From assembly GCA_903925275.1 (NCBI GenBank), contig CAIYES010000104.1, forward strand, positions 450 through 64,449: DNA of 64,000 bases. Direction: 5' to 3'. The notes under the pieces were generated by a model that worked only from the letters and a program-made list of their open reading frames with translations, did not search any database and had not been told where the DNA came from. The stretch comes from an uncultured Bacteroidales bacterium. Lineage in GTDB: Bacteria; Bacteroidota; Bacteroidia; Bacteroidales; FEN-979. The position numbers were made by a program, and so were the translations under genes. Every line of letters begins with the position of its first letter. The first letter of the stretch is position 1. Below, in pieces: positions 2,707-58,602 of this stretch.

Positions 2707-3618
2707 ATGGCCGGACTGAAGGAAGTACGTATTCGGATTGCATCGGTTAAATCGACCCAGCAGATCACCAATGCCATGAAAATGGTGGCGGCCTCCAAGC
2801 TGCGTAAAGCACAAACGGCTATTATAAAGCTGCGGCCCTATGCTGCCAAACTGCGGGAAATTTTACAAAACCTGAGCGCAACAATCGACAATTCCGACGA
2901 AAACGTATTTTCCCGCGAACGTAAACCGGAAAAGGTTTTGCTGGTGGTTATTGCTTCCAACCGTGGACTTTGCGGCGCCTTCAACTCCAACATTGTTAAG
3001 ATGGCCTTACATCTTACTGCAACCAAGTATCATCATCAGTTCCTTGGGAACAACGTTAGTTTTATCACCATCGGTCGTAAAGCGTCAGAATATTTCCGGA
3101 AGAGAAAATACAATGTCGTTGAATCGCATGACGACCTTTTTGATCAGCTTACCTTCAGCAACGCATCGGCGCTCGCCGAAAAATTGATGAAGAGCTTTGT
3201 TGGCAAAGAATATGACCGGATCGATTTGATTTATAATCAGTTTAAAAACGCAGCCGTTCAGCGGTTGATCGTTGAGCAGTACCTTCCCATTACACCCTCA
3301 CAGGAAACGACGCCATCGTCCGCGAAAACTACGCCTGTTCCCATTGTCAAAGCAGAAGCGGATTATATATTCGAACCCGACAAGGAGACCATTGTTCGTG
3401 AGCTGATTCCGAAAACCTTGCGCATTCAGCTCTTTAAAGCAGTGCTTGACTCCTTTGCCTCCGAACAGGGCGCCCGGATGACCGCCATGCAGAAAGCCAC
3501 CGAAAATGCCAAAGAGCTCCTCCGCGACCTCAACATCTCCTATAACAAAGCCAGGCAGAATTCCATCACCAACGCCATTCTCGAAATTGTATCCGGGGCT
3601 GAAGCGCTCAAGGGGTAG
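2707..3618 (+). CDS. atpG: F-type ATP synthase subunit gamma
   Basis: N-terminus IRIASVKSTQQITNAMKMVAASKLRKAQ and C-terminus ARQNSITNAILEIVSGAEAL are canonical gamma signatures. Confidence 0.95.
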   Translation: MAGLKEVRIRIASVKSTQQITNAMKMVAASKLRKAQTAIIKLRPYAAKLREILQNLSATIDNSDENVFSRERKPEKVLLVVIASNRGLCGAFNSNIVKMALHLTATKYHHQFLGNNVSFITIGRKASEYFRKRKYNVVESHDDLFDQLTFSNASALAEKLMKSFVGKEYDRIDLIYNQFKNAAVQRLIVEQYLPITPSQETTPSSAKTTPVPIVKAEADYIFEPDKETIVRELIPKTLRIQLFKAVLDSFASEQGARMTAMQKATENAKELLRDLNISYNKARQNSITNAILEIVSGAEALKG

Positions 3619-5105: not shown

Positions 5106-7061
5106 ATGGAAAAAAGTATCGAAAGGGGTAATGAAAAAGTGGAAGCATTTTCAGAATTAGAGCGAGGGGTTTATGCTGCGCTTGAAACGTATTCCAATGT
5201 TCACCGTGGTAGCGGGCACAACTCGATGGTGACCACTCATTTATTTGAACAGGCCAGGGAAATTGTGCTGGATTACCTGGGTCTGGACAAAGGCAAATAC
5301 AGTGTAATTTTTTGCACGCCACGAAGAGCTGAAGTCCTGAAGGCGCAACTTGAGCCGGAAAGTTATCAGATTGTCTCAAGTCAGGATATAGGTCTGTCGC
5401 TGGGTTTAAGGGCTTTGGTTGTTAAAAGGAAGGCGTTGCCCAAAGGCATTCCTTTCCAGACCGGTGGAGGAACGGCCAGTCTTGTATCTCCCGATTGGGT
5501 CATCTGGGCCGATGCACCCGACAAGTTCGAGGCCGGTACACCAGCTATCGTCAACGTCATCGCATTTGCCAGGGCACTGCAACTTATCCGCCAATCCGAA
5601 AATGACATCTTCCTGGATCCGGTGACCGAAAAACTGACTGCCGGCGAAATTCTTTACCATGACGAACTGGAGAATTACCATGGACGGGAACTGTTGCACG
5701 AATTCAGGAAGACCCGGATTGGTCATGGGATGCTGGTCCCAACAGTGGATGGCGAAAGACCTCATATAAACCTGGACAACGGCGCCAGCACTCCCACATT
5801 TACCCCGGTATGGAACGCAGTATGCCAAACATGGCGCCAGCCCCGAAAAGTACAGCAAGAGATCATTCAGGAGGTCAGGTCTGTTTGTGCCGAAGTATTG
5901 GGAGCGCCCTTGTCTGCCTATGATGTGATCTTTACCTCCAATACCACCGAAGCCATCAATCTGGCGGCTGAAAGCCTGGGCCGTGAACCGACACAGGGCA
6001 TCGAACCCGTTATTCTTGGTACGCTGCTCGAACACTCCTCGAACGATCTCCCCTGGCGATTGGTTCCCGGATTTTCATTGATCAGGCTGTCGGTTGATGC
6101 CGAGGGCTTTGTTGATTTGAAGGAGCTGAACACGGTATTGTGTGCCTATAACAAAAAGGGGCAGTACGGAAAGAAACGGATCAAACTTGTAACGGTTACC
6201 GGCGCGTCAAATGTCCTCGGCGCATACAACAACCTTGGAGAGATCAGCCGGATTGTTCACCAATATGGGGCAAGTCTGATGGTGGATGCAGCACAGGTAA
6301 TCGCTCACCGAAAGGTCGGGATGGAAGCAGACGGAATTGATTATCTCGCCTTCTCTGCCCATAAAATTTACGCACCGTTCGGCTGTGGTGTGCTGGTGGT
6401 AAAAAAGGGATTGCTTGCCTTCAGCCCGGCTGAAATGGAGGTGATCCGATTGTCGGGCGAAGAAAATGCAGGTGGCATCGCTGCATTGGGTAAGGCGCTT
6501 GTGCTTCTGCAACGGATTGGTATGGACCTGATCAGGGAGGAAGAACGGGATCTGACAGGATTGGCTTTGCGCGGCCTCGGGCAGATCGCCGGTCTCAGGA
6601 TTTACGGAGTAAAGGATACCGACTCCCCGGGGTTCGTTCAAAAGGGAGGTGTCATTACTTTTTCTCTGAAGGGCATCCAGCCCAACCGGGTTGCCAGGGA
6701 ACTGGCTGAGCGGGGCGGGATCGGTGTGCGGTACGGTTGTCACTGCGCCCACATTCTGATCAAGCACATGCTTGGCGTTAGTCCCCTGCTGGCGCGTTTC
6801 CAGGGTATAATTGTGACCCTGTTCCCGAAGTTAAGACTGCCTGGCCTCGTCAGGGTGAGCCTGGGCATCGGGAACAGCAAAGAAGATATTGACAACTTGA
6901 TTTACATACTTGACCAAATTGCCGGGAAGACCGGTGCCTTACCGGACAGGAATTCCGTTTCAACCCATCAGGGAACACCGATCCTACCGAAAGAAAAAGT
7001 GCAAAAACGGATAAATGATTTCGTCAGGGCTGCAGTTCTGAGAGTCTATTCCAAAGGTTAA
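5106..7061 (+). CDS. Class-V aminotransferase-fold PLP enzyme (cysteine desulfurase/selenocysteine lyase-like), extended form
   Basis: Motifs NVHRG, LDNGASTP, IFTSNTTEAINL, GASNVLGAYNNL, VDAAQVIAH, PLP-lysine motif FSAHKIYAPFGCGVL, and RYGCHCAH. An extra N-terminal ~190 aa repeats NVHRG and FEAGTP-type motifs. Confidence 0.85.
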   Translation: MEKSIERGNEKVEAFSELERGVYAALETYSNVHRGSGHNSMVTTHLFEQAREIVLDYLGLDKGKYSVIFCTPRRAEVLKAQLEPESYQIVSSQDIGLSLGLRALVVKRKALPKGIPFQTGGGTASLVSPDWVIWADAPDKFEAGTPAIVNVIAFARALQLIRQSENDIFLDPVTEKLTAGEILYHDELENYHGRELLHEFRKTRIGHGMLVPTVDGERPHINLDNGASTPTFTPVWNAVCQTWRQPRKVQQEIIQEVRSVCAEVLGAPLSAYDVIFTSNTTEAINLAAESLGREPTQGIEPVILGTLLEHSSNDLPWRLVPGFSLIRLSVDAEGFVDLKELNTVLCAYNKKGQYGKKRIKLVTVTGASNVLGAYNNLGEISRIVHQYGASLMVDAAQVIAHRKVGMEADGIDYLAFSAHKIYAPFGCGVLVVKKGLLAFSPAEMEVIRLSGEENAGGIAALGKALVLLQRIGMDLIREEERDLTGLALRGLGQIAGLRIYGVKDTDSPGFVQKGGVITFSLKGIQPNRVARELAERGGIGVRYGCHCAHILIKHMLGVSPLLARFQGIIVTLFPKLRLPGLVRVSLGIGNSKEDIDNLIYILDQIAGKTGALPDRNSVSTHQGTPILPKEKVQKRINDFVRAAVLRVYSKG

Positions 7062-7094
7062 CATTAAGGGTATATATAACGCTGAACAACCAGA

Positions 7095-8405
7095 ATGATA
7101 AAAAAAACGCTTGAGAATTTAAAGATCGGGACATTAAACAAGATGCAGCTTGCCGCCATCGCGGCGATAAAAAAATCACCCGATATCCTGCTTCTTTCTC
7201 CTACAGGTTCCGGAAAGACGCTCGCTTTTCTGTTGCCCGTTCTGAGTAGTTTGATTTCCGATACTCCGGGTGTTCAAACCCTGATCCTGGTTCCCTCCCG
7301 TGAACTGGCCCTGCAGATCGAACAGGTTTTCAGGCAGATGAATTCAGGATTTAGGGTGAATTGTTTTTACGGCGGGCATGCAACCAAAACGGAAAGGAAT
7401 AATTTGACCCAGCCGGCGGCAGTGGTTGTCGGGACGCCCGGCCGGATTGCCCATCACCTCAGGAATGATAATTTTGAAACCGCGGGCATTCACACCCTGG
7501 TACTTGATGAATTTGACAAGTCGCTTGAATTCGGGTTCAAAGCGGAAATGTCGTTCATTATTTCCCGACTGAAAATGTTGAAGAAGCGGATTTTGACCTC
7601 TGCAACCAACATGGACGAGATTCCTGCTTTTACAGGGATAAAAAGCCCGCTGGTACTTGATTTCCTGAGCAGCCGCTCTCCGGTAACGGCTGCCATAAAG
7701 GTAAAATCCCTGAGAGCGGAGGATGCCGACAAACTGAAAATTTTATTTGCGTTGATCTGTTTGCTGCAGAACAAGCCGGCCTTGGTTTTTTGCAATCACC
7801 GGGAGGCAGTTGAACGCATAAGCACCCTGCTGGAAGAAAAAGGACTGGAACACGGTGTATTTCATGGGGGAATGGAACAGGAAGAACGCGAGCGTGCCCT
7901 GATAAAATTCAGGAACGGCAGCCATCGGTTGCTGATAACCACCGACCTGGCCTCCCGCGGACTCGACATACCTGAAATAGAGGCTGTGATTCATTATCAG
8001 TTGCCGGTTTCGCAGGATATTTTTACACACAGGAACGGGAGAACCGCCAGGATGAATGCTGCCGGAACATCTTACTTGTTGCTATCGGTCACCGACCACC
8101 TGCCGCCGTTTATTAAGGAAGCGCCTGAGATTGAAAACTTGCCTGAAAAGAACATTCTGCCGGGAAAATCACCGTGGTGTACACTATACATTGCAGCAGG
8201 GAAAAAGGAAAAAATTAACAAGATGGATATTGTCGGCATGCTTCTGCAAAAAGGCAAACTGGCAAAAGAAGAGCTTGGCCTGGTCGAAGTATTGGATCAT
8301 GCTTCTTACGCCTCCGTAAGCAGCACCAAAATTGAAAATGTTGTTAAATTGATCAGAAACGAAAAGATCAAGAATAAAAAAGTCAGAATTGAAATCGCCA
8401 GGTGA
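7095..8405 (+). CDS. DEAD-box ATP-dependent RNA helicase with DbpA-type C-terminal RNA-binding domain
   Basis: Motif I SPTGSGKT, Ia PSRELA, II VLDEFD (DEFD variant), III SAT, VI HRNGRTAR. The C-terminal CTLYIAAGKKEKINKMDIVG is DbpA-like. Confidence 0.9.
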   Translation: MIKKTLENLKIGTLNKMQLAAIAAIKKSPDILLLSPTGSGKTLAFLLPVLSSLISDTPGVQTLILVPSRELALQIEQVFRQMNSGFRVNCFYGGHATKTERNNLTQPAAVVVGTPGRIAHHLRNDNFETAGIHTLVLDEFDKSLEFGFKAEMSFIISRLKMLKKRILTSATNMDEIPAFTGIKSPLVLDFLSSRSPVTAAIKVKSLRAEDADKLKILFALICLLQNKPALVFCNHREAVERISTLLEEKGLEHGVFHGGMEQEERERALIKFRNGSHRLLITTDLASRGLDIPEIEAVIHYQLPVSQDIFTHRNGRTARMNAAGTSYLLLSVTDHLPPFIKEAPEIENLPEKNILPGKSPWCTLYIAAGKKEKINKMDIVGMLLQKGKLAKEELGLVEVLDHASYASVSSTKIENVVKLIRNEKIKNKKVRIEIAR

Positions 8406-8452
8406 ACACGTTGATTTAGTTGGATGATTTTTCCCATCGTGGAAAATAAGAC

Positions 8453-8460
8453 TAACTTTG
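8453..8460 (+). promoter_or_regulatory. Candidate Bacteroidota -7 promoter box TAACTTTG
   Basis: Exact TAnnTTTG match 24 nt upstream of ATG 8484. Supports the shorter ferritin start. Confidence 0.4.
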
Positions 8461-8483
8461 TATTTATTAATCCGAAGTATCCT

Positions 8484-9023
8484 ATGATCGCAAAAAACGT
8501 AGAAAAAGCAGTAAACGAACAGATCAAACGCGAAGAACATTCTTCCCGGATTTACCTGTCGATGGCCTCCTGGGCCGAACGGAACGGCTATCCCGGCGCT
8601 GCAAACTGGCTGTATGTGCAAACTGAAGAGGAACGAATCCACATGCTGAAACTGGTTCATTACCTCAACGATCGTGGCGGAACCGCGGTTATTCCGGCGC
8701 TGGATGCGCCCGAAGCAAAATTCGACTCCCTGCCCGATGTCTTTCAACAGGTGCTGACCCATGAAGAGTACATCTCGGCCTCGATCAACGACCTTTATGC
8801 CACATGCACTTCAGAGAAAGATTTTACTACGGCAAACTACCTGCAATGGTATATTACCGAGCAGATCGAAGAGGAGAGCACTGTTCGCAGTATTCTGGAT
8901 CAGATAAAACTGGCTGGCAGCGACAAGGGCGGTTTGTTCATGATGGATAAGGAATTTGCGGCCATGGCAACTGCCAAACGCGCGGCATTGGCGCTGAGTG
9001 GTGGCGCTAACGCAGTAACTTAA
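8484..9023 (+). CDS. ftn: Ferritin (non-haem, Ftn type)
   Basis: LNEQIKREEHSSRIYLSMASWAE, EEERIHMLKL and QWYITEQIEEE are ferroxidase-centre helices. Start set at ATG 8484. Confidence 0.85.
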   Translation: MIAKNVEKAVNEQIKREEHSSRIYLSMASWAERNGYPGAANWLYVQTEEERIHMLKLVHYLNDRGGTAVIPALDAPEAKFDSLPDVFQQVLTHEEYISASINDLYATCTSEKDFTTANYLQWYITEQIEEESTVRSILDQIKLAGSDKGGLFMMDKEFAAMATAKRAALALSGGANAVT

Positions 9024-9561
9024 CCAGTTTGTTATACCAGGTTCGTCCATACTTGCGGATCAATGCCTCTTCCAGGAATTGGTAAAGGTGTATTTTTTCT
9101 TTATGACCTTTCAGCAAAGCCTTCTGGCAGATCGGCCATTTGTGATAATTCAGCAAATCATTGATTGGGTTTGCTTTTATCCTGATGGGGTAGAGGTGGC
9201 ATGAAATAGGTTTTGCAAATGGAATTTTCTTTTCCTGGAAGGCCTTTTCGATGGCGCATCTCGCTATTCCTGCCTCAAAATAGACATAGGCACACTCCTT
9301 TCCGTGTATCAGTGGAGTGACAAATTTTCCCTCTGCATCATAATCGAACACCCCAAGCATCTCCACCTCCTCTACACCTTCGGGCACCATGAAGGGTTTG
9401 ATCTCATCCACGTAATCTTCAAGCAGGGATATCTCCTCTTCGTCGAGTGGCGCCCCGGCATCACCCTCCACGCAACAGGCCCCTTTGCAACTGGGCATGT
9501 CACAGCAGAAGAAAGTTGACTTGATTTCGTCGGAGAGAAGGGTGCTGTCTAGGTAAATCAT
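9007..9561 (-). CDS. DUF3109 family Cys-rich protein
   Basis: CCDMPSCKGACCVEGDAGAPLDEEEI matches my recollection of the DUF3109 N-terminal motif. Its 3' end overlaps the ferritin 3' end by 17 nt (convergent). Confidence 0.7.
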   Translation of the reverse strand: MIYLDSTLLSDEIKSTFFCCDMPSCKGACCVEGDAGAPLDEEEISLLEDYVDEIKPFMVPEGVEEVEMLGVFDYDAEGKFVTPLIHGKECAYVYFEAGIARCAIEKAFQEKKIPFAKPISCHLYPIRIKANPINDLLNYHKWPICQKALLKGHKEKIHLYQFLEEALIRKYGRTWYNKLVKLLR

Positions 9562-9577
9562 GGCGGTTTAATTAAAT

Positions 9578-9640
9578 AATGCAAACAATGCAGGCAATGC
9601 AAGCAATGCAGAAAATGCAAGCAATGCAGAAAATGCAGAA
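9578..9640 (+). repeat. 9-bp tandem array A, 7 units AATGCA[AG][AG][AC]
   Basis: Units read in register: AATGCAAAC, AATGCAGGC, AATGCAAGC, AATGCAGAA, AATGCAAGC, AATGCAGAA, AATGCAGAA. Confidence 0.95.
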
Positions 9641-9701
9641 AAAATTTTTTTTAACAAGGGTTTGACTTTTTGATTTTTTGCGGATTAAGCGAAAAGTGAA
9701 A

Positions 9702-10061
9702 ATGAAAGATAACGCGATCAAAGATAGAAGTTTTGAACTGGCCGTGGAAGTGGTTTTTGTATATCAGTACCTTATACGAGAAAAACATGAGTATATTCTT
9801 TCAAAACAGGTGTTGAGATCGGGTACTTCGGTAGGAGCGAATATAGAAGAAGGAGTTGTGGCACAGTCGAAAAAGGAGTTTTGTAACCGGTTGTCAATTG
9901 CCTATAAAGAGTCCCGTGAAACCGGATTTTGGCTGAAGTTGCTATTATCAACAGGCTACCTTACAAACGAAAAAGCCTCTGCTGCAATTGAAAAATGTGA
10001 AGAAGTCACCAGAATATTATATTCCATTCTGAAAACATCCTCTCAACCAAAGAACGAATAA
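9702..10061 (+). CDS. Four-helix-bundle protein (23S rRNA intervening-sequence protein / Avd-like family)
   Basis: SFELAVEV, LRSGTSVGANIEEG and AYKESRETGFWLKLL are hallmark motifs of the TIGR02436/PF05635-type family. ATG 9702 is preferred over TTG 9678. Confidence 0.85.
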   Translation: MKDNAIKDRSFELAVEVVFVYQYLIREKHEYILSKQVLRSGTSVGANIEEGVVAQSKKEFCNRLSIAYKESRETGFWLKLLLSTGYLTNEKASAAIEKCEEVTRILYSILKTSSQPKNE

Positions 10062-10070
10062 TCACCCATT

Positions 10071-10151
10071 ATCTGCATTATCTGCATTGTCTGCATTGCC
10101 TGCATTGCCTGCATTGCTTGCATTGCTTGCATTGCTTGCATTGCTTGCATT
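10071..10151 (+). repeat. 9-bp tandem array B, 9 units NNYTGCATT (reverse complement of array A units)
   Basis: ATCTGCATT x2, GTCTGCATT, GCCTGCATT x2, GCTTGCATT x4. Starts 9 nt after the four-helix-bundle stop. Confidence 0.95.
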
Positions 10152-10167
10152 CATCCACTTGAAACCG

Positions 10168-10902
10168 TTAGTAAACTTTCACCTTCTGTTCCCCGTTCTT
10201 TTTAAAGGTTACGGTCTTAACGATTTTATTGTCCCTGTATTCGTCCTGTTTGGTGATCTCTTTTCTGCCGTTGTAAAAAAATGAAATTCTGTATTCACTT
10301 CCATGCAGGTAACTGTATTTTCTTCTGACGGTTTTATCATCGTTGTAGATTAAAAGATCCCCGTTGAATTTAGCTGAAATCAGCACTGTTGCGATCTCAA
10401 CAACAGCCAGGAACGGATCCATCCGGTATGTTGTAGTGCCCTGGTAAACAGCACCGTTATTCACCACATGTTGTGAAGTTAAAACTGTTTTTTCGTCATC
10501 AAACATGTTGTTTTCAAAGCTGTTTAAATGAAGTACCGTTTCCTCCGGAATGGGTTCTTTGGCACTTACTTCGGCCAGTTTCATTTTATTCCTGTACAGG
10601 GTCCACTTCAAGATACCTGTATCGGAATATTCTGTCAAACGACGCGGACTCCCATCCGGGTTATTGAATCTCCAAGTCCCAACCGGCCTTCCGGTACTGT
10701 CATACCAACTTTCAGCATAGATGGTTCCATTTGGAGAAAGGTCCACCCATTTGCCGGTTTTAACACCATTACTATAGTTTCCTGCACTTCTGAATTCTTT
10801 ATAGAACATTGTAGTATCCTGGTATAAAACAGCCTGAGAAAAAAGATTTTTTTCAGGAACAAACAGAACTGAAATTAAAAAAACCAGAAAAACATTTTTC
10901 AT
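10168..10902 (-). CDS. Secreted MORN-variant repeat protein (YwqK-like)
   Basis: Signal peptide MKNVFLVFLISVLFV. GKWVDLSPNGTIYAESWYDSTGRPVGTWRFNNPDG is MORN/YwqK-like. Start set at ATG 10902, because the listed MQTMQT extension is a translation of array C. Confidence 0.65.
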   Translation of the reverse strand: MKNVFLVFLISVLFVPEKNLFSQAVLYQDTTMFYKEFRSAGNYSNGVKTGKWVDLSPNGTIYAESWYDSTGRPVGTWRFNNPDGSPRRLTEYSDTGILKWTLYRNKMKLAEVSAKEPIPEETVLHLNSFENNMFDDEKTVLTSQHVVNNGAVYQGTTTYRMDPFLAVVEIATVLISAKFNGDLLIYNDDKTVRRKYSYLHGSEYRISFFYNGRKEITKQDEYRDNKIVKTVTFKKNGEQKVKVY

Positions 10903-10945
10903 AAAAAACCTCCTACATCTCTTGTATTTCCTGCATTCAATAATT

Positions 10946-11035
10946 TTCTGCATTTTCTGCATTGTCTGCATTGTTTGCATTGTCTGCATTGTCTGCATTG
11001 TCTGCATTGTCTGCATTGTCTGCATTGTCTGCATT
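10946..11035 (+). repeat. 9-bp tandem array C, 10 units (TTCTGCATT x2, GTCTGCATT, GTTTGCATT, GTCTGCATT x6)
   Basis: Read in register. Ends 2 nt from the stop codon of the 11038-12105 gene and lies upstream of the MORN gene start. Confidence 0.95.
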
Positions 11036-11037
11036 GG

Positions 11038-12105
11038 TTAATTCCCGGGTAATTGCGATATCATTTTCCGTGAAGGTTTATAGCGCCGCCAGAATTTATA
11101 TCGTGTAATGGAAGTAAAGTAAAAAAGTTGCCTGACGCCGGGAATCCGCAGCAAATAATGATAGATGCGGTAAGATACGACCATCACCACAAAAGTCAGT
11201 CCCCACCGGATAATTGTCAACACTACCTCCACCCAGCCATTGCCCGCCGGGATGGTGATGAACCTGTCGACAAATTGCCAGAACCACATCAGAAGCCAGA
11301 TGTTAAGCAGGCACATGATGCCGATGATGTACCCATGGGAAGTTTCAATGGCTCTTTTCGGGCAGTCGTTCATGCATCGCATGCAGCTTTCACATCGGTA
11401 TGACCAGAAAGGGCGGTTGTCAACAGTCAGAATAGCCTTTACCGGGCAGTTGTTGATGCAGAGGTCGCATTTGTCGCAGGCATTTGTCGCATAAAACGAT
11501 TTAGCCAGGATGAACCGCCCTACGAAAAAATAGCCGATGCTCACCGGCGAAACAAGTATATCCTGAATAATATCGCGGAACGCCGTGTAAACTTTTTTCC
11601 CACTGAGGATTTTTCCTGCAAAAGCAATGGTGATGCTTTTACAATGACTGTAAATTGATTCAACCACTTTTTCCTTCACCCCTGGATGGAAGGATATCCA
11701 GTTCGACGGCAGGTCGATGGAACGCAGTCCCACAATGCGGTATCCTTTCAGCAGGAGTATCAGCGATGAAAGCCAAAGGGCAAGCCCGCTCAATCCGGGA
11801 ACGAACCATTTTGATAGTTTAAGCCCGGCGCGGGTATTCATCAGGAAGACCCGGTTCCCCTTCGACCGCGGGAAACGGAAGATGAAGTACATCATGGCCG
11901 GTGGGTAGTTAAACCCGTGGGTGGGAGAGATAAAACCAACCAGCGAATTTGTCGGAGGTGGCTGGATATTTTTCCGGTCGATTTTCGCGATATCGATTGT
12001 TTCGGCCGTAATGTCGCGTTCCAGCGCAGTTTCGGCAAACCAGCGGGCCACGTTGCGGGCATTGCCGGTGCCGGAAAAGAAATAGATCGTGAGCTGTGAA
12101 GGCAT
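11038..12105 (-). CDS. EFR1-family flavodoxin-like / 2x[4Fe-4S] ferredoxin with C-terminal membrane helices
   Basis: Flavodoxin-like IYFFSGTGNARNVARWFAE. Two CxxCxxCxxxCP motifs (CDKCDLCINNCP, CESCMRCMNDCP). About three hydrophobic helices at the C-terminus. Confidence 0.75.
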   Translation of the reverse strand: MPSQLTIYFFSGTGNARNVARWFAETALERDITAETIDIAKIDRKNIQPPPTNSLVGFISPTHGFNYPPAMMYFIFRFPRSKGNRVFLMNTRAGLKLSKWFVPGLSGLALWLSSLILLLKGYRIVGLRSIDLPSNWISFHPGVKEKVVESIYSHCKSITIAFAGKILSGKKVYTAFRDIIQDILVSPVSIGYFFVGRFILAKSFYATNACDKCDLCINNCPVKAILTVDNRPFWSYRCESCMRCMNDCPKRAIETSHGYIIGIMCLLNIWLLMWFWQFVDRFITIPAGNGWVEVVLTIIRWGLTFVVMVVSYRIYHYLLRIPGVRQLFYFTSITRYKFWRRYKPSRKMISQLPGN

Positions 12106-12486
12106 AATGGAAGATTTTAATGGTTCCCATTTCTTTTTCAGGGAATAAAGGTAGAAAAAAGTTTTTCAATACATCGCATCCCCTGTCCACTTCGCTGCAA
12201 GGAAAAGTGGAATTCATACTCTATGAATGAGGGTTAGATTGTGGTGATTGATGCTTGATCAAAAAAAGGCAATCTGATCATCTCTGAAAGGATCAGAAAG
12301 TTCAAAAGAAGAATCAGAATTATGAATGAACAGCCATTTTTAATTGAAGCACATTCCATGACGTTTAGTAATTGAGCTAATTAACGAGAATTCAGCCAGT
12401 ATGATCTATTCAGAATTACCTTCTGCATTTTAACAATGCCAAATAATCACTTTGCGAGCCCATTTTGTCCCAGCATTCACAGCATT

Positions 12487-12639
12487 GCTTACATTGTCTG
12501 CATTGCCTGCATTTTCTGCATTTTCTGCATTGCCTACATTGCCTACATTGCCTACATTGCCTGCATTGCCTGCATTGCCTGCATTGCTTGCATTGCCTGC
12601 ATTGCTTGCATTGCCTGCATTGCTTGCATTGCCTGCATT
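12487..12639 (+). repeat. 9-bp tandem array D, 17 units G[CT][CT]T[GA]CATT / TTCTGCATT
   Basis: Read in register. Variant units occur in runs (GCCTACATT x3, GCCTGCATT x3, then alternating GCTTGCATT/GCCTGCATT). Lies ~160 nt upstream of nuoA. Confidence 0.95.
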
Positions 12640-12766
12640 GACAAATATCAACTCCACCTATGAGATATTACAGCACCCATATTGTAAGTGGCATTTAATC
12701 AAACAAATAACGATGAGATATATATGTTTTATGCTATATCCGGTTAGGTTATCTCAGATTAATTTT

Positions 12767-12774
12767 TAACTTTG
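12767..12774 (+). promoter_or_regulatory. Candidate -7 promoter box TAACTTTG for the nuo operon
   Basis: Exact TAnnTTTG match 27 nt upstream of the nuoA ATG. Confidence 0.4.
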
Positions 12775-12800
12775 CCGCCACGTCTGTTAAAAGATTCACT

Positions 12801-13151
12801 ATGAGTGCTGAAAGTCTTATACTTTTCTTTATCGTTGGAGCCTTTCTGGTGGGGTTCGCCATTGTGTTTTCCATCCTTGTCGCACCCACTTCGACCAATC
12901 CTTCAAAAGCCGAACCTTACGAATGCGGGATTCCTACCGAGGGGCTTACCTGGCTGCAATTCAACGTGGGGTATTATTTATTCGCCATCATCTTTCTGGT
13001 ATTCGATGTTGAAAGTGTATTTATTTTTCCATGGGCCGTGGTGATGAAAGAACTGGGAATGACTGCCTTTATTGAAATCGTCATTTTCTTTTTCGTTTTG
13101 GGACTTGGCCTGTTATATGCCTGGAAGAAAGGAGCTTTGAAATGGGAATAA
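12801..13151 (+). CDS. nuoA: NADH-quinone oxidoreductase subunit A
   Basis: 116 aa, 3 TM helices, EPYECGIP motif, first gene of the nuo cluster. Confidence 0.93.
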
Positions 13152-17416: not shown

Positions 17417-17734
17417 ATGTTTGAAGGCGTTCCATTAACCTGGTTTTTAATCACCGGCACCATCATGTTCTTTGTCGGTATTTATGGATTTCTGGTCCGG
17501 AAAAACCTGATCACCATCCTCATGTCTACCGAATTGATCCTGAATTCGGTCAACATCAACTTTGTTGCTTTTAACAAAATCCTTTACCCGGATCATCTGG
17601 AGGGGATGTTCTTCAGCATTTTCATCATTGCCGTTGCAGCGGCGGAGGCATCGGTGGCCATTGCCATCATTATCAACATTTACCGCCGCCTCGTGAATAT
17701 CAATGTTGAGAAGATGGATGAAATGAAATATTAG
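17417..17734 (+). CDS. nuoK: NADH-quinone oxidoreductase subunit K
   Basis: 105 aa, 3 TM helices, STELILNSVNINFVAF. Confidence 0.92.
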   Translation: MFEGVPLTWFLITGTIMFFVGIYGFLVRKNLITILMSTELILNSVNINFVAFNKILYPDHLEGMFFSIFIIAVAAAEASVAIAIIINIYRRLVNINVEKMDEMKY

Positions 17735-17911
17735 GCAATAGGCAATAGGCAGTAGGCAATAGTTTGAGAACTAAATGTAATACCATAAGAGAAATGAAAT
17801 GTTAGGCAATAGGCATCAGGCAATAGGCAATAGTTTTTGAACCAAATGTAATACCATAAGAGAAATGAATAACAGTATTTTAAAACCCAATGCCTACTGC
17901 CTACTGCCTCA
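17734..17911. repeat. Composite repeat in the nuoK-nuoL spacer
   Basis: A ~77-bp tandem duplication carries GGCA[AG]TA heptamer arrays, plus an inverted heptamer array. GGCAATA-type x4 at 17734-17762 and x4 at 17805-17833. The block GAAATGAAAT[AG]TTAGGCAATAGG...AAATGTAATACCATAAGAGAAATGAA occurs twice. Inverted TGCCTAC x2-3 at 17891-17911. Confidence 0.9.
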
Positions 17912-17938: not shown

Positions 17939-19864
17939 ATGATCGATTTCAGTTACACCGTTTGGATTCTGTTGATACCCCTGCTCATGTTTTTAGTGGT
18001 CGGTCTCTTCGGGAACCGTTTTAAACCATTGGTCTCCGGAATTGCCGGAACCTCAGGCCTGTTTGTGATGTGGATACTGTCATTAGTCACAGCCTACAAG
18101 TATTTCTTTGTGCTTGAGAAGGCTGCCGACGGAACCTTTCAGAAATTCCTGGCCTTCAACATGCGCTGGCTGAACCTGACCGATACGCTTCACATCGACA
18201 TGGGAGTGCTCCTTGATCCCATCTCGATCATGATGCTGATCGTGATCACAACCGTTTCGTTTATGGTACACGTATATTCCATCGGGTACATGAAGGACGA
18301 AAAAGGGTTCATGCGTTTTTTTGCCATGTTATCGCTCTTCAGTTTTTCGATGCTGGGGCTGGTTGTTGCGACCAACATTTTCCAGATGTATATCTTCTGG
18401 GAACTTGTGGGGGTATCCTCTTATCTGCTTATCGGATTTTATTATACGAAGGATTCGGCTGTATCAGCCTCCAAGAAAGCTTTTATTGTGACCCGTTTTG
18501 CCGACCTGGGATTCCTTATCGGGATACTGATGCTTTCATTTTCCACAGGAACTTTCGACTTTCTGACCCTTACAGGTGCTAACAGCCCTGCGTTTTCTTC
18601 AGGAACCGGGATCATGTTCCTCGGATTGTCAACCATGACATGGTCAATGATCTTTATCTTCATGGGAGGCGCCGGAAAATCGGCTATGTTCCCGCTGCAT
18701 ATATGGTTACCCGATGCCATGGAGGGTCCAACCCCTGTTTCGGCACTTATCCATGCGGCCACCATGGTTGTTGCAGGTGTTTATCTGGTGGCACGTCTTT
18801 TTCCTATTTACGTTTTTGCTGCCCCCGTGGCCCTCGATGTGGTGATGTATGTGGGGGCATTCAGTTCTATTTTTGCTGCCGTGATCGCCTGTACCCAATT
18901 CGACATCAAGCGGGTACTTGCATATTCGACCATGTCGCAGATTGGCATGATGATGTTCGCCCTTGGTGTTTCTGGATACAGCGGACATGAAGGATTAGGT
19001 TATATGGCCTCTATGTTCCATCTTTTTACGCATGCATTTTTTAAATCTCTGTTATTTCTTGGTGCCGGAGCCATTATTCACGCCGTTCACAGCAATGTGA
19101 TGAACGAAATGGGCGGGTTGCGGAAATATCTTCCAATTACACATGCCACCTTCCTGATAGCCTGTTTAGCCATTGCCGGAGTTCCGCCACTGGCAGGGTT
19201 TTTCAGCAAGGACGAGATCCTGGCTGCCGGCCATGAAAAAAGCCTGATGTTATACTGGGTTGAAATGATCGTATCTGGGTTGACCGCATTTTATATGTTC
19301 CGCCTCTATTTCTCAGTTTTCTGGGGAAAAGAAACCCATTACCACCATACGCCGCATGAAGCTTCAAAAACGATGACCATTCCCCTGATGATTCTTGCCG
19401 TTGGCGCACTTCTGGCCGGATTGATCCCATTCTCCATGTTCGTTTCGTCCGACCGTATGCCTTTCCAATCGCACCTTGAGATCGGTATTGCCATTCCGGC
19501 TGTGCTGGTCGGTTTGTCCGGGATTTTGATCGCCATGATTTTCTACAGGAAAGAGACTGACCTGCCCGACAGGATATACAATGCCCTGGGCGGTTTCTCA
19601 AAGGCAGCCTTTCACAAATTTTACATTGATGAAGTCTATCTGTTCATAACCAAAAAAATTATTTTTAACTATGTGTCCCGTCCCATTGCGTGGTTCGACC
19701 GTCACATCGTAGATGGCGCCATGAACGGGGTGGCTTATGTAACAAACGAAGCCTCCGACCGCATTAAAAGATTTCAATCGGGCCAGCTCCAGCAATATGC
19801 ACTTGTTTTTGTATCCGGCGTAGTGTTGCTTACCTTGTTATTCACCTATTTTTGGACAAACTAA
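17939..19864 (+). CDS. nuoL: NADH-quinone oxidoreductase subunit L
   Basis: WLPDAMEGPTPVSALIHAATMV. 641-aa antiporter-like subunit with a C-terminal extension. Confidence 0.96.
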   Translation: MIDFSYTVWILLIPLLMFLVVGLFGNRFKPLVSGIAGTSGLFVMWILSLVTAYKYFFVLEKAADGTFQKFLAFNMRWLNLTDTLHIDMGVLLDPISIMMLIVITTVSFMVHVYSIGYMKDEKGFMRFFAMLSLFSFSMLGLVVATNIFQMYIFWELVGVSSYLLIGFYYTKDSAVSASKKAFIVTRFADLGFLIGILMLSFSTGTFDFLTLTGANSPAFSSGTGIMFLGLSTMTWSMIFIFMGGAGKSAMFPLHIWLPDAMEGPTPVSALIHAATMVVAGVYLVARLFPIYVFAAPVALDVVMYVGAFSSIFAAVIACTQFDIKRVLAYSTMSQIGMMMFALGVSGYSGHEGLGYMASMFHLFTHAFFKSLLFLGAGAIIHAVHSNVMNEMGGLRKYLPITHATFLIACLAIAGVPPLAGFFSKDEILAAGHEKSLMLYWVEMIVSGLTAFYMFRLYFSVFWGKETHYHHTPHEASKTMTIPLMILAVGALLAGLIPFSMFVSSDRMPFQSHLEIGIAIPAVLVGLSGILIAMIFYRKETDLPDRIYNALGGFSKAAFHKFYIDEVYLFITKKIIFNYVSRPIAWFDRHIVDGAMNGVAYVTNEASDRIKRFQSGQLQQYALVFVSGVVLLTLLFTYFWTN

Positions 19865-22878: not shown

Positions 22879-23020
22879 TGTTGCATTTCCGTAGAGCCGC
22901 ATCGCAATGCGGCGTACGGGTTGTATTGATGTTGCATTTCCGTAGAGCCGCATCGCAATGCGGCTGTACGGTCCGGCGCATTGCATTTCCGTAGAGCCGC
23001 ATCGCGATGCGGCTCTACGG
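22865..23020 (+). repeat. Three tandem copies (~51 bp) of a hairpin-bearing element that starts inside the last codons of nuoN
   Basis: ACGGGTTGTATTGATGTTGCATTTCCGTAGAGCCGCATCGCAATGCGGC(T)GT x2, then a third partial copy. The third copy forms a perfect 14-bp stem: CCGTAGAGCCGCAT-CGCG-ATGCGGCTCTACGG (22989-23020). Confidence 0.9.
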
Positions 23021-54180: not shown

Positions 54181-55254
54181 ATGAACTTTTCAACCTTTGT
54201 TACCGATAAAGCCGGCTTGCACAAATTCTATGAAGACATCATGGCCAGCCATGAAACTTTTGCACCGGTAGAAAAATTCGGCAAATTTGATTTTAAAAAG
54301 GTGACCAGTCTTTCGGAATGTGATCCCGAATCACCCATCGCGAAAACCCTGAGCATCAAGCCTCTGTTCTTTCCACGGTCGGCCAAAGTAATGAAATATG
54401 TTGCCACCAGCAGCGGAACTGACGTTAGTGAAACAGATGAAGATCACCTGGCCGGCAATCGCGTAATCCTTGGGGTTAAACATTGCGATGCCCGCAGCCT
54501 CCAGGTTCTCGACAAGGTGTATAACTGGGATTATATCGATACCGATTATCAGAAACGCCGTGAGAATACCGTGATCGTCTCGACCCGTTGCGACAAAGCC
54601 GAAACCCATTGTTTCTGCACCTCGCTCGATTACGATGTTGAAAATCTCGATGCCCTCGATGTGGTTGTCGTTAATGGAACTGAAGGGAAGATTTACATCA
54701 AGGCAAGAACCGAAAAAGGGGAGACCTTTATTAGCGGAATGAACATCGACAACCGGCTATCGAAAAATGAGTGGCGAAAGGCGGATGACAAGACAGCCGG
54801 AGAGATTAAGACACAATATGAATCTTTTGCAGGTTCGTTCCGCCTGAAGATGGATTACAAGGAGGTAAATGAGAAACTTTCAAAAATATTTGACACCCCC
54901 GAATTTGAAAATGTTTCGGGAAACTGCATAAGTTGCAATACCTGTGCATTTGTTTGTCCCACCTGTCATTGCTTTAAGATCTCAGACGAAAAGGTGAAAG
55001 ACACCGGCGTGCGCTACAAAAGCTATGACTCATGCAACAATGGATATTTCACCCTGATGGCCGGTGGGCATAATCCCCGCCCGGTGAAGTACCGGAGGTG
55101 GAGGCAGCGTGCCATGCATAAATTTGTATATTACAAAGAACGCTTTGGTGTGAACCTGTGCGTGGGATGCGGCAAATGCACCATTTCCTGTCCTGTGAAC
55201 ATCAGCATCTTTGAGGTGGTGAACCAGGTCTCTGCAGCTTCAATGCAGGAATGA
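54181..55254 (+). CDS. flxB: FeS protein, FlxB / AsrA / HydB-like
   Basis: CISCNTCAFVCPTCHCF and CVGCGKCTISCP. Its size and partner gene resemble sulfhydrogenase beta / anaerobic sulfite reductase A. Confidence 0.65.
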   Translation: MNFSTFVTDKAGLHKFYEDIMASHETFAPVEKFGKFDFKKVTSLSECDPESPIAKTLSIKPLFFPRSAKVMKYVATSSGTDVSETDEDHLAGNRVILGVKHCDARSLQVLDKVYNWDYIDTDYQKRRENTVIVSTRCDKAETHCFCTSLDYDVENLDALDVVVVNGTEGKIYIKARTEKGETFISGMNIDNRLSKNEWRKADDKTAGEIKTQYESFAGSFRLKMDYKEVNEKLSKIFDTPEFENVSGNCISCNTCAFVCPTCHCFKISDEKVKDTGVRYKSYDSCNNGYFTLMAGGHNPRPVKYRRWRQRAMHKFVYYKERFGVNLCVGCGKCTISCPVNISIFEVVNQVSAASMQE

Positions 55255-55258
55255 AAAC

Positions 55259-55321
55259 AATGCAAACAATGCAAACAATGCAAACAATTTTCACCATTTC
55301 ACCATTTCACCATTTCACCAT
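55259..55321 (+). repeat. Two adjoining tandem arrays in the flxB-flxA spacer: AATGCAAAC x3 (55259-55285) and TTCACCAT x4 (55290-55321)
   Basis: Read in register. Degenerate units (AATGCAGGA, ATGAAAAC) extend back over the flxB stop codon. Confidence 0.95.
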
Positions 55322-55330
55322 TTAATTCCT

Positions 55331-58351: not shown

Positions 58352-58602
58352 GGATCAAGCGGAATTTCATGGGAGAAGGTTGCAAAGCAAAAATTTCAGA
58401 TTTCAGATTTCAGATTTCAGATTTCAGATTTCACATCTTAAATTTGATTGATTTGTCCTGATTTTCCATTGTGTCCGTACTTTTTTATGGTTAATCAGTG
58501 TTGTGGCATAAAAGCTAAGGGTGTGTTGGTGATATCTGAAATCTTATATCTGAAATCTGATATCCGAAATTCCCTTCCCACCCCGGAAATTCCTCTTGAT
58601 CC
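58352..58602. mobile_element. MITE-like element 1
   Basis: ~22-bp terminal inverted repeats enclose inverted heptamer arrays. Left GGATCAAGCGGAATTTCATGGG versus the reverse complement of the right end GGATCAAGAGGAATTTCCGGGG (19/22 by hand). Interior has ATTTCAG x5 (58393-58427) and inverted CTGAAAT copies (58535-58570). No ORF. Confidence 0.55.

Follow-up and report, generated by a model that had tools for sequence, protein, structure and literature searches.

The question raised by this locus is why a gene for a four-helix-bundle (4HB) protein, of the family carried by 23S rRNA intervening sequences (IVSs), should lie in a protein-coding neighbourhood, enclosed by a pair of short-period tandem arrays in inverted orientation. 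The locus belongs to a 64,000-nucleotide stretch of DNA from an uncultured Bacteroidales bacterium, the whole of which is referred to here as the window. Its features are listed in Table 1.

Table 1. Coordinates of the 4HB cassette, its surroundings and related repeat arrays in the window.
Feature	Position	Strand	Basis or remark
5' arm, (AATGCANNC) x about 7	9578..9642	+	tandem-repeat and inverted-repeat searches
5' leader between arm and ATG	9643..9701	+	motif common to related lake-metagenome copies
4HB protein gene, 119 aa, PF05635/TIGR02436	ATG 9702 to stop 10061	+	profile matches
3' arm, (CATTGNNTG) x 9.4, reverse complement of 5' arm	10067..10151	+	
Strain-specific insert within 3' array, 791 nt	10152..10942	-	absent from L081/L082
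Insert gene, 244 aa, predicted secreted or lipoprotein-like	CDS 10168-10902	-	
Distal 3' array continuation, (GCATTGTCT) x 10.4	10943..11036	+	orientation as 10067-10151
EFR1-family ferredoxin gene	11038-12105	-	
Solo array, 9-mer family, 17.7 units, upstream of nuoA, without 4HB gene	12482..12640	+	
Solo 9-mer-family array, (AATGCAAAC) x 4.3, operon spacer, without 4HB gene	55250..55288	+	
8-mer array, (TTTCACCA) x 4.4	55289-55323		directly after 55250-55288 array

Both arrays were assigned a period of 9 by Tandem Repeats Finder, with 6.9 copies at 9578-9639 and 9.4 copies at 10067-10151. An inverted-repeat search paired 9578-9642 with 10078-10142 over 65 nt at 89% complementarity, and two alternative registers reached 86%. 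The initial annotation was therefore correct in describing the arrays as reverse complements that enclose the 4HB gene only, the ORF at 9702-10061 being the sole gene between the arms; its hand alignment, in which 54 of 63 positions paired, had identified the inverted arms but put their complementarity slightly below the computed value. Its proposal of a long imperfect stem with the ORF in the loop agrees with in silico folding, in which RNA 9565-10165 is predicted to form a terminal stem of about 70 bp (MFE of -183.8 kcal/mol, z = -7.4 versus shuffled sequences). Purines predominate in the 5' arm when it is read on the sense strand of the 4HB gene. This arm starts at a distance of 17 nt from the start codon (9561) of a divergent DUF3109 gene, and the 3' arm starts 5 nt past the 4HB stop codon. 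From about 4.6 kb upstream to 3 kb downstream, the neighbourhood comprises an unassigned 651-aa ORF (5106-7061), a DEAD-box helicase gene that was called by sequence inspection, and the genes for ferritin, DUF3109, the EFR1 ferredoxin and nuoA. Neither rRNA nor any other Rfam family was detected in the 64-kb window, which confirms that an IVS-type 4HB gene is present here outside rRNA.

The leader between the 5' arm and the ATG contains the motif ..AACA..GG.TTGACTTT..GGATTAAsCG.AAAAGT.ATG, which was read by eye from the copies L081, L082, L083, L089, L093, L096, L098 and L100 placed side by side. It is a candidate promoter of the 4HB gene or a candidate translation signal. A scan of the locus for sigma-70 promoters and terminators gave nothing that exceeded chance. 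Since the window 4HB gene is antisense to both of its neighbours, it probably uses a promoter within this conserved leader of about 60 nt.

The encoded protein matched PF05635 with 91.5 bits (cut-off 33.8) over profile positions 1-105 of 106, and TIGR02436 with 100.6 bits (cut-off 24). It is thus a full-length member within the size range of about 110-130 aa that is typical of the family. The conserved family motif is G-x2-R-x3-S-x3-N-x2-E (PMC3936711). R39, S43, N47 and E50 of this motif are found in LRSGTSVGANIEEG; S43, N47 and E50 do not vary in alignment A1, and in the window subfamily an invariant Q36 occupies the position of the leading G. PDB entry 2RLD from Bacteroides thetaiotaomicron aligned across the whole window protein (E 3e-47), and entry 2GSC, which represents Xanthomonas XCC0516, was matched with an E of 1e-5. 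Each entry contains five chains, and from the close homologue 2RLD we infer that the window protein would be a pentamer of four-helix bundles. Comparison with orthologues gave dN/dS values of 0.06-0.16, showing that the protein is under purifying selection. A profile built from the window subfamily alone retrieved 18,627 clusters at 50% identity. Most of the close homologues are located on contigs of 1-3 kb. No PADLOC defence-system model was found for the 4HB protein. PF05635 members are located inside CRISPR-cas, restriction-modification, acc, tRNA and rRNA operons, and we know of no function that has been assigned to them since the IVS ORF was described in 1993, nor of a nuclease or recombinase motif in the family.

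The window arrays are not exclusive to the 4HB gene, but are members of an abundant dispersed family. The solo array upstream of nuoA shows that the arms belong to such a family, and GCATT-N4-GCATT-N4-GCATT was counted 30 times across the window, as compared to 0.00 occurrences expected from shuffled sequences. In the source metagenome, bins containing the array reached about 100 times the depth of single-copy sequence. Further 7- and 8-mer arrays occupy operon spacers at 17728-17910, 55289-55323 and 58384-58570. When the gene-less arrays of the window were examined for leftover cassette leader sequence, only matches at chance level were obtained, and we do not claim these arrays as decayed cassettes. 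The 3' arm itself is part of a longer structure. The distal array abuts the EFR1 stop codon, and in L081/L082 a single unbroken array fills the space between the stop codons of 4HB and EFR1; the 3' arm in the window is therefore half of a longer array, which the insert has split. The depth of the insert was lower or nil in other sequencing runs. Its 244-aa protein had no match in Pfam, NCBIfam or PADLOC and no homologue among loci L001-L160.

Comparison of orthologous sites in relatives revealed the gene and the arrays together, or neither. The site was filled with a 4HB gene plus arrays in L081/L082 and empty in L087/L088/L092, where the EFR1 stop lies 8 nt from the DUF3109 start and no arrays are present. 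The recurrence of the gene-plus-arrays package across many phyla, described below, suggests that it comes and goes as a unit. At the orthologous spacer in L083, L093, L097, L109 and L126 a different 4HB gene was present in the opposite orientation. The latter proteins are 66-75% identical to the window protein, as compared to 74-90% for the host gene, and they therefore represent replacements rather than recent flips. Array lengths vary even between 98%-related strains. No transposase, target-site duplication or transfer mechanism was found for the cassette; the neighbour protein is 86% identical between the filled L081 and the empty L087, which are too diverged for a target-site duplication to be read. 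None of the three observations that the initial annotation had named as refuting it was made, and its suggestion of a self-contained module, which we consider probable, is supported.

We then considered whether this architecture is a property of the family, using 80 4HB loci from more than 10 phyla, 78 of which were used for array counts. A tandem array was present just upstream of the 4HB gene in 61 of the 78 loci and just downstream in 49, as compared to 9 of 137 control windows. The period was 7 in 60 of the 61 upstream and 47 of the 49 downstream arrays. Across 4HB loci the two arrays mirror each other, the downstream one being the reverse complement of its upstream counterpart: flank-to-flank scores of at least 35 were obtained in inverted orientation at 46 of 75 loci versus 10 of 75 in direct orientation, so that the inverted flanks anticipated for other family members were indeed found. 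The median gap between array and ORF was 18.5 nt upstream and 12 nt downstream. Each copy's arms match one another better than the arms of other copies; the own right arm was the best partner of the left arm at 20 of 76 loci (1 expected) and among the top 10% of partners at 42 of 76. The upstream arm was purine-rich at 51 of 59 loci (p = 9e-9). The cassette is normally co-oriented with, and placed just behind, a host gene within an operon, as shown by an upstream neighbour in the same orientation at 67 of 73 loci (median gap 59 nt). Some of the sampled copies are located in tRNA operons, and 23S-embedded relatives, which were sought among the 80 loci, were not found, only neighbouring tRNAs. 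The architecture is not universal, as a detectable upstream array was missing at about a fifth of the loci. Inverted arrays were also seen by eye in about 9 of 16 4HB copies on viral contigs, and in two viral copies the polarity was swapped.

The flanking units themselves are unrelated, the heptamers including AATTACG, GGGAATC, GTCGGAG (Nostoc), GAAAGTG (Treponema), GTAAAAA and GACAGAT (Coxiella). In Xanthomonas, Dyella and Lysobacter the 4HB gene is placed between accB and accC and flanked by GGGAATN arrays; the XCC0516 orthologues occupy this position with inverted GGGAATC-type arrays. Compared to the period of 7 in 60 of the 61 upstream arrays, the window copy is a 9-nt-period variant that is atypical in both its period and its antisense placement. 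No conserved partner gene and no reverse transcriptase were found in 78 loci, the largest clusters of non-4HB neighbours being response regulators and type I restriction-modification subunits with 7 loci each. The ORF of one homologous cassette (L028) is transcribed, as judged from assembled contigs of rumen and sheep-gut metatranscriptomes, which are contigs without molecule ends. RNA runs retrieved for the window organism shared only about 5% of the sequence words, all of them chance hits to the repeats.

The 23S IVSs of Leptospira and Coxiella and the window cassette are alike in that a PF05635 ORF is located in the loop of an inverted-repeat stem, and terminal inverted repeats (65-nt arms, 89%) are thus shared by both. 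IVSs are inserted in helix 9, 25 or 45 of the 23S rRNA, whereas the window cassette is flanked by the DUF3109 and EFR1 ferredoxin genes. In the S23p IVS of Coxiella burnetii, purine-rich GACAGAT heptamers are repeated 2-4 times upstream of the ORF in strain-variable numbers, the terminal stem is 28 bp long, RNase III makes its 5' cut at the first heptamer, and the ORF has been reported as decaying (PMC4990558). In the window, both arms are tandem arrays with a period of 9, and the ORF is under purifying selection. Cutting by RNase III has been demonstrated in Coxiella, and excision is a prediction for the window cassette.

A separate body of work concerns heptamer arrays. Xanthomonas genomes contain about 186 GGGAATC arrays each, with 70-75 convergent inverted array pairs per genome, which were published without a link to 4HB genes; these and the GGGGAYT heptamer arrays of Nostoc have been treated as G-quadruplex or slippage features (PMC4692102). 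The window 9-mer arrays resemble the Xanthomonas and Nostoc heptamers and the cyanobacterial STRR in being dispersed, intergenic and of strain-variable length. They differ in that an inverted pair encloses a 4HB gene, both in the window and at the XCC0516 locus, and in that STRR and GGGAATC units are exactly 7 nt long. RAYT genes, for their part, are typically flanked by inverted copies of a genome-dispersed short repeat, and the window gene is likewise located between inverted copies of a dispersed repeat. However, the 4HB protein lacks a Y1-transposase or other catalytic motif, its family matches being limited to PF05635/TIGR02436, and the window repeats are tandem arrays rather than single palindromes as in REP/REPIN. 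Structural entries 2RLD and 2GSC originate from structural genomics, and their genomic flanks were previously undiscussed. Literature searches, including literal repeat strings, returned no description of a general association between 4HB genes and arrays: the IVS ORF family and the heptamer arrays are each known separately, and no publication on their general association was found.

On balance, we consider it probable that the window element is a non-rRNA form of the ORF-bearing 23S IVS, in other words a cassette of 4HB gene and hairpin that rides in operons. Such a cassette would depend for its transcription mainly on read-through of the host operon. Pairing of its arms would give an extended stem of double-stranded RNA, closed by a loop that contains the ORF, and this stem would be cut by RNase III as in the Coxiella IVS. 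Cleavage would release the 4HB message, and the cassette would be tolerated at low cost in rRNA, tRNA and mRNA operons. Slippage may lengthen the tandem arms, intrastrand template switching or gene conversion may keep both sides alike, and a repeat array would be able to pair in any register. The repeat unit, dispersed about 100-fold in the source community, would supply portable homology through which cassettes could be gained, lost or rearranged, as is suggested by the extra gene that sits inside the window 3' array. For the non-rRNA cassette, both RNase III processing and the mechanism of transfer are inferred. This model leaves unexplained the regular period of 7 with unrelated units, because RNase III would require no more than a simple inverted repeat. 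In addition, given the antisense placement and the conserved leader of the window copy, transcription of its own mRNA may be initiated within the left arm, and this mRNA would then never form the stem.

A tentative alternative, which we regard as possible but less likely, is that the tandem units are recognized as RNA or single-stranded DNA by the 4HB pentamer, with one unit per subunit, and that the protein thereby autoregulates its translation or creates and propagates the arrays. Analogues would be the TRAP ring on its repeat array and the RAYT transposases that act on REP/REPIN, and such binding is compatible with RNase III cleavage of the stem. A period fixed at 7 with unrelated unit sequences would be in line with this view, although heptamer excess has also been ascribed to polymerase slippage in general (PMC4692102), and the window lineage has periods of 9 and, in the L083/L093 arrays, 8 with a protein of ordinary length. 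The same applies to the median array lengths of 5.3 units upstream and 5.7 downstream, which recall the five chains of both crystal entries but are inflated by a detection floor of 4 units. Also consistent with binding are the several upstream arrays that extend into the start codon, the identity of the flanking unit with the dispersed unit of the genome in both the window and Xanthomonas, and the paralogues L002 and L022 from one MAG, which have different units that are each matched between their own arms. Against this alternative stands that no nuclease or recombinase motif is known in the family. A wider version of this proposal, which we judge to be rather unlikely, is that 4HB proteins are the trans-acting partner of the short-period arrays (heptamer SSRs, STRR, GGGAATC) that are over-represented in many bacterial genomes: the pentamer would bind about 5 units, the gene with its two inverted arrays would be the autonomous form of a new type of mobile repeat system for which no nuclease is known, solo and hairpin arrays would be its non-autonomous offspring, rRNA IVSs its landed copies, and the Avd protein of diversity-generating retroelements (DGRs) a domesticated descendant.

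A further question is whether the RNA stem is relevant at all. The arm mismatches were G.U-compatible in 37 versus 38 cases, with 102 transversions, and thus without a G.U bias on the sense strand. Maintenance of arm complementarity could thus be purely a matter of DNA, and the mismatches do not demonstrate selection on an RNA stem via strict covariation. The covariation that the initial annotation had looked to for support is present in the matching of own arms, but not in the mismatch spectrum. This symmetry would fit inverted arrays that extrude as a cruciform or recombine with each other, rendering the segment invertible or deletable and thus a site of phase variation or a recombination hotspot. 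Both 4HB orientations at one orthologous spacer, the different array lengths in 98%-related strains, and the gene between two direct array halves that is variable in the population would fit such behaviour, as would one contig that joins 9612 to 10991 on opposite strands. However, this joint may be an assembly artefact at the repeat, the oppositely oriented copies are replacements to judge from their identities, and a pure switch predicts neither the co-orientation with the upstream gene nor the purine-rich-upstream polarity. We consider it decidedly unlikely that DNA-level events alone account for the cassette.

That a gene came to lie by chance between two arrays in a genome rich in intergenic short tandem repeats is very improbable: the 9-mer array does occur at three other window sites without a 4HB gene, as do the 7- and 8-mer arrays in the three operon spacers, but coincidence accounts neither for the pattern across 78 loci of many phyla as opposed to 9 of 137 control windows, nor for the co-variation of the arms, the fixed polarity and the array-free empty sites. 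Least credible is a DGR remnant, i.e. an Avd gene left behind after loss of the reverse transcriptase and the template/variable repeats. Avd shares the homologous pentameric four-helix-bundle fold with PF05635 (PMC10053308), and both are small basic proteins, but the window gene stands alone with its own flanking arrays of short tandem units instead of a template/variable repeat pair, the 78 loci lack a conserved neighbour, and no entry for Avd was among the results of the PDB profile search, although matches with an E of up to 10 were admitted. The absence of a reverse transcriptase noted in the initial annotation thus extends to the family, and none was found among the scanned or read ORFs of 5106-13151 other than the 651-aa ORF at 5106-7061. 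A CRISPR reading was also rejected, as CRISPR arrays consist of direct repeats of about 24-48 nt that are separated by unique spacers, whereas the units here are contiguous 9-mers. An IS or MITE is not supported, in that the cassette contains no transposase, while L081 and L087 are too diverged for a target-site duplication to be read.

As a non-rRNA relative of the IVS, the fixed three-part cassette of purine-rich array, ORF and complementary array would provide a single account of the scattered placements of PF05635 genes. It would also link two separate literatures, one on rRNA intervening sequences and one on the excess of heptamer repeats in Xanthomonas, cyanobacteria and other bacteria. 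The function of the 4HB protein is testable in organisms for which both genetics and crystal structures are available, such as Xanthomonas (XCC0516) and Bacteroides thetaiotaomicron (2RLD). On the practical side, the arrays break short-read assemblies and yield spurious ORFs, as exemplified in the window by a MQTMQT... extension at 10903-11034 and by ORFs at 12430-12769.

The product of the gene between the two arms (Table) belongs to the four-helix-bundle (4HB) family, matching PF05635 with 91.5 bits (cut-off 33.8) and TIGR02436 with 100.6 bits (cut-off 24). Its nearest solved structure is 2RLD of Bacteroides thetaiotaomicron (E 3e-47), XCC0516 (2GSC) being a remoter relative, and both PDB entries contain five chains. 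The arms pair over 65 nt at 89% in the best register and at 86% in two adjacent registers, and the window holds 30 occurrences of the three-unit motif where shuffles predict none. In the predicted fold of the RNA from 9565 to 10165 the arms form a terminal stem of ~70 bp, and the ORF occupies the loop (MFE -183.8 kcal/mol, z = -7.4). The arm pairing and the PF05635 match, together with the absence of any Rfam family, including rRNA, from the whole 64-kb window, confirm the initial annotation of a 4HB gene bracketed by inverted arms outside rRNA, and the predicted fold agrees with the stem-loop that it had proposed. The window copy is antisense to its neighbouring genes and shares a conserved 60-nt leader with its lake relatives; its transcription may therefore begin within the left arm.

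Features of the cassette, its surroundings and related loci (window coordinates unless a comparison locus, L, is named)
Feature	Position	Strand	Description
5' arm	9578-9642		~7 units of 9 nt, AATGCANNC
4HB gene	ATG 9702 to stop 10061		119 aa; sole gene between the arms
3' arm	10067-10151		9.4 units, CATTGNNTG, reverse complement of the 5' arm unit
DUF3109 gene	9007-9561	minus	neighbour
244-aa gene	10168-10902	minus	neighbour
EFR1-family ferredoxin gene	11038-12105	minus	neighbour
Ferritin gene; nuoA			further protein-coding neighbours
Gene-less inverted pair (TAGGCAA)n ... (TGCCTAC)n	17728-17910		inside the nuo operon
Gene-less inverted pair (ATTTCAG)n ... (CTGAAAT)n	58384-58570		downstream of a 700-aa gene
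XCC0516 (structural-genomics target, PDB 2GSC) and orthologues in Xanthomonas, Dyella and Lysobacter	L161/L165 1424-1872; L169, L172	same	inserted between accB and accC, on their strand

The 4HB family is large, a profile search finding 18,627 clusters at 50% identity. We aligned 32 homologues and took 80 loci from species-representative genomes, among them those of Bacteroidota, Ignavibacteria, KSB1, Cloacimonadota, Planctomycetota, Lentisphaerota, Acidobacteriota, Gemmatimonadota, Pseudomonadota, Firmicutes and CPR. The inverted score, obtained from the best local alignment between the upstream flank and the reverse-complemented downstream flank, reached 35 or more in 46 of 75 loci, versus 10 of 75 for direct alignments and scores of ~20 for shuffles; inverted flanks are thus present in other members of the family as well. 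Tandem arrays of at least 28 nt within 200 nt of the 4HB gene were found upstream in 61 and downstream in 49 of 78 loci, as compared to 9 of 137 control windows 1.5 kb away. The period was 7 in nearly all of these arrays (60 of 61 upstream, 47 of 49 downstream), the window being the sole period-9 case among the surveyed loci. A typical array has ~5 units and is separated by a median of 18.5 nt from the start codon or 12 nt from the stop codon, and several upstream arrays extend into the ATG (e.g. ...AATTAGGAATG). The arms of a cassette evolve in concert; their units vary by locus (AATTACG, AATTAGG, AATTACT, AATGCAG, AATGCTG, AATGAGT and others) and are alike in both arms of one locus, and the right arm of the same locus was the single best partner of the left arm in 20 of 76 loci (1 expected) and ranked in the top tenth in 42 of 76. 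In 51 of the 59 loci with clear arms, purines predominate on the sense strand of the upstream arm (p = 9e-9). As the arms are mutually complementary, inversion of the gene cannot yield this polarity, which is therefore genuinely constrained. This is probably because a leader rich in purines or in A does not stand in the way of translation initiation; GGAG or AGGA is present in many units. Two viral-contig copies, L182 and L187, which are distant family members, are exceptions to this rule, their polarity being swapped, so that (CGTAATT)n lies upstream and (AATTACG)n downstream. Lastly, an acidobacterial locus (L054) and a CPR locus of Shapirobacteria (L059) have the identical arm sequence AATTACGAATTTCAAATTACGA, including its odd middle unit, a hint that whole cassettes move from one phylum to another.

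Cassettes with unrelated units were found in independent lineages. The orthologues of XCC0516 are preceded by GGGAATCGGGAGTGGAGAATCGGGAATCGG and followed by CCCATTCCCCATTCTCGACTCCCTATTCCC, which runs directly into the accC start codon, and their arms are complementary at 26 of 30 positions in our alignment. Dyella and Lysobacter have the same accB-4HB-accC arrangement with arrays as in Xanthomonas. In Xanthomonas and Dyella, no more than a few nt lie between the end of the downstream GGGAATN-type array and the accC start codon, and in Lysobacter ~15 nt do. GGGAATC arrays have been described as a striking feature of the Xanthomonas genome, with ~186 arrays of which 70-75 form convergent inverted pairs, in a paper that nowhere mentions the 4HB gene family (PMC4692102). 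A plasmid copy of Nostoc punctiforme lies between (GTCGGAG)n and (CTCCGAC)n, arrays of the (GAAAGTG)n type bracket a copy in Treponema saccharophilum, and an Anabaena cylindrica copy with (GTAAAAA)n arrays is located between cas2 and cas1. By eye, roughly 9 of 16 viral-contig copies have inverted arrays, the two with swapped polarity among them.

The cassettes lie co-oriented in operon spacers. The nearest upstream ORF has the orientation of the 4HB gene in 67 of 73 loci, with a median end-to-start gap of 59 nt, and the downstream ORF has this orientation in 55 of 74. None of the 80 sampled loci is located in rRNA. Six cassettes (L009, L037, L060, L074, L076 and L080) lie within ~100 nt of same-strand tRNA genes, and the one in L009 is flanked by a tRNA on either side and is thus inside a stable-RNA operon other than rRNA. 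We found no recurrent partner gene beside the 4HB gene across the loci, the largest real neighbour clusters being response regulators and type I restriction-modification subunits with 7 loci each, and no PADLOC model matched the 4HB protein. A role as the Avd accessory protein of a diversity-generating retroelement was rejected, because no reverse transcriptase was seen among the ORFs scanned or read between 5106 and 13151, in line with the initial annotation, and none recurs beside the 4HB genes of the surveyed loci.

The orthologous site was compared in 80 metagenome loci with DUF3109 orthologues of 55-98% identity. The two closest relatives (98%) have, after the EFR1 stop, a single unbroken array, the 4HB gene, an array and DUF3109, and the outer ends of the unbroken array match the outer ends of 10067-10151 and 10943-11036 in the window. 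It follows that the segment 10152-10942, together with the 244-aa gene, was inserted into the array and lies between two direct halves of the 3' array. The insert gene encodes a signal peptide and had neither a family match nor a homologue in any fetched locus, including the 98%-related strains, and the depth of the segment in other runs was lower or zero. This suggests that arrays mediate the gain or loss of passenger genes. The ORF listed at 10168-11034 is extended by MQTMQT... because of read-through of the array. In three relatives (86-87%) the EFR1 stop is 8 nt from the DUF3109 start without arrays or a 4HB gene, and two more have array-free gaps of 50-70 nt. The gene and its arrays are one evolutionary unit, gained and lost together; the sites of relatives were either filled with both or cleanly empty of both, in line with the self-contained module that the initial annotation had envisaged. 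Five other relatives have a 4HB gene that points the other way, with units of 8 nt (AATGCAGG / CCTGCATT). One of these proteins is 70% identical to the window copy with a host gene that is 90% identical, and these identities indicate replacement rather than a recent flip. Truncated 4HB genes occurred in two lineages. Along the vertically inherited series, dN/dS was 0.06-0.16, so the protein is functional and under selection. Array length and unit composition differ even among the 98%-related strains. Five loci (L086, L091, L093, L094 and L129) have a different gene of ~200 aa between EFR1 and DUF3109, and L086 has a 15-nt tandem array, (GGATCCCGGCGGATT)x7, at 3330-3490 in the same spacer. Insertions and arrays have a hotspot in this spacer in general.

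The arrays of the cassette are not private to the 4HB gene. The 9-mer array of the arms recurs at 10943-11036, 12482-12640 and 55250-55288. In a metagenome run holding 92% of the region, word depth was ~1,000-1,260 in array bins versus 8-19, mostly 10-13, in flanking unique sequence, and many different sequences run on from the arrays. The unit is therefore part of a repeat family, which is dispersed on the order of hundredfold in the source community.

In Coxiella burnetii, the intervening sequence (IVS) of the 23S rRNA encodes the PF05635 protein S23p, carries terminal inverted repeats that form a 28-bp stem, undergoes excision by RNase III, and has two to four tandem heptamers GACAGAT, strain-variable in copy number, directly upstream of the ORF (PMC4990558). 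Its layout of purine-rich heptamers, ORF and complementary arm is that of the cassette, and it is the sole member with experimental RNA data. Our findings support the core of the initial interpretation, an IVS-type 4HB gene between inverted arms outside rRNA, and we consider it fairly probable that the cassette is a non-rRNA form of the ORF-bearing 23S rRNA IVS, with a processing step that we infer by analogy. Read-through transcripts would hold both arms, which would pair, and RNase III would cut the duplex and release the 4HB message as a hairpin-ended RNA, so that insertion would be tolerated in rRNA, tRNA and mRNA operons. Slippage would lengthen the arrays, template switching or gene conversion would homogenise the two arms, and dispersed arrays of the same unit would provide homology for acquiring, losing and exchanging cassettes and passenger genes. 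A sheep-gut metatranscriptome contig with a homologous cassette comprises the left-array end, the ORF and the right-array start at a higher depth than the neighbours. Less in favour of this account, the arm mismatches showed no sense-strand G.U bias (37 vs 38 transitions; 102 transversions). An RNase III stem leaves the near-universal period of 7 with unrelated units unexplained. Such regularity suggests a physical ruler, and either polymerase slippage or the pentameric protein could serve as one.

The PF05635 family, the IVS stem and its excision by RNase III, the Coxiella heptamers and the heptamer arrays of Xanthomonas and Nostoc were already known. In the searchable literature we found no report of stand-alone PF05635 genes across phyla being bracketed by inverted short-period arrays with fixed polarity, of such genes riding co-oriented in operons, or of a flanking unit being the dispersed array unit of the genome. 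In the window, the cassette has a period of 9 nt, is inserted antisense and shows a passenger gene inside an array.

Several further arrays were observed in the window. The gene-less pair of the nuo operon consists of a block, (TAGGCAA)x4 with a 43-nt unique segment, that is present twice and is followed by inverted (TGCCTAC)x3, directly upstream of a 641-aa nuoL-like ORF (17939-19864); in this hairpin of heptamer arrays the purine-rich arm comes first. The second pair consists of (ATTTCAG)x6, an 85-nt loop and a (GATATCTGAAATC)-type array that includes the reverse complement, and no similarity was found between this region and the 4HB cassette leader. At 55250-55323, (AATGCAAAC)x4.3 abuts (TTTCACCA)x4.4 in a 76-nt spacer of co-oriented genes. 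Three tandem copies of a ~50-nt unit, each containing the near-perfect palindrome CCGTAGAGCCGCATCGCAATGCGGC(TC)TACGG, follow the last nuo gene at 22864-23020 and look like a REP-like or terminator-like hairpin array. Lastly, a 159-nt solo array gives rise to four overlapping spurious ORFs of 58-105 aa at 12430-12769 (e.g. GNASNAGNA..., CIACIACIA..., LPALPALLA...), which may be reported by gene callers.
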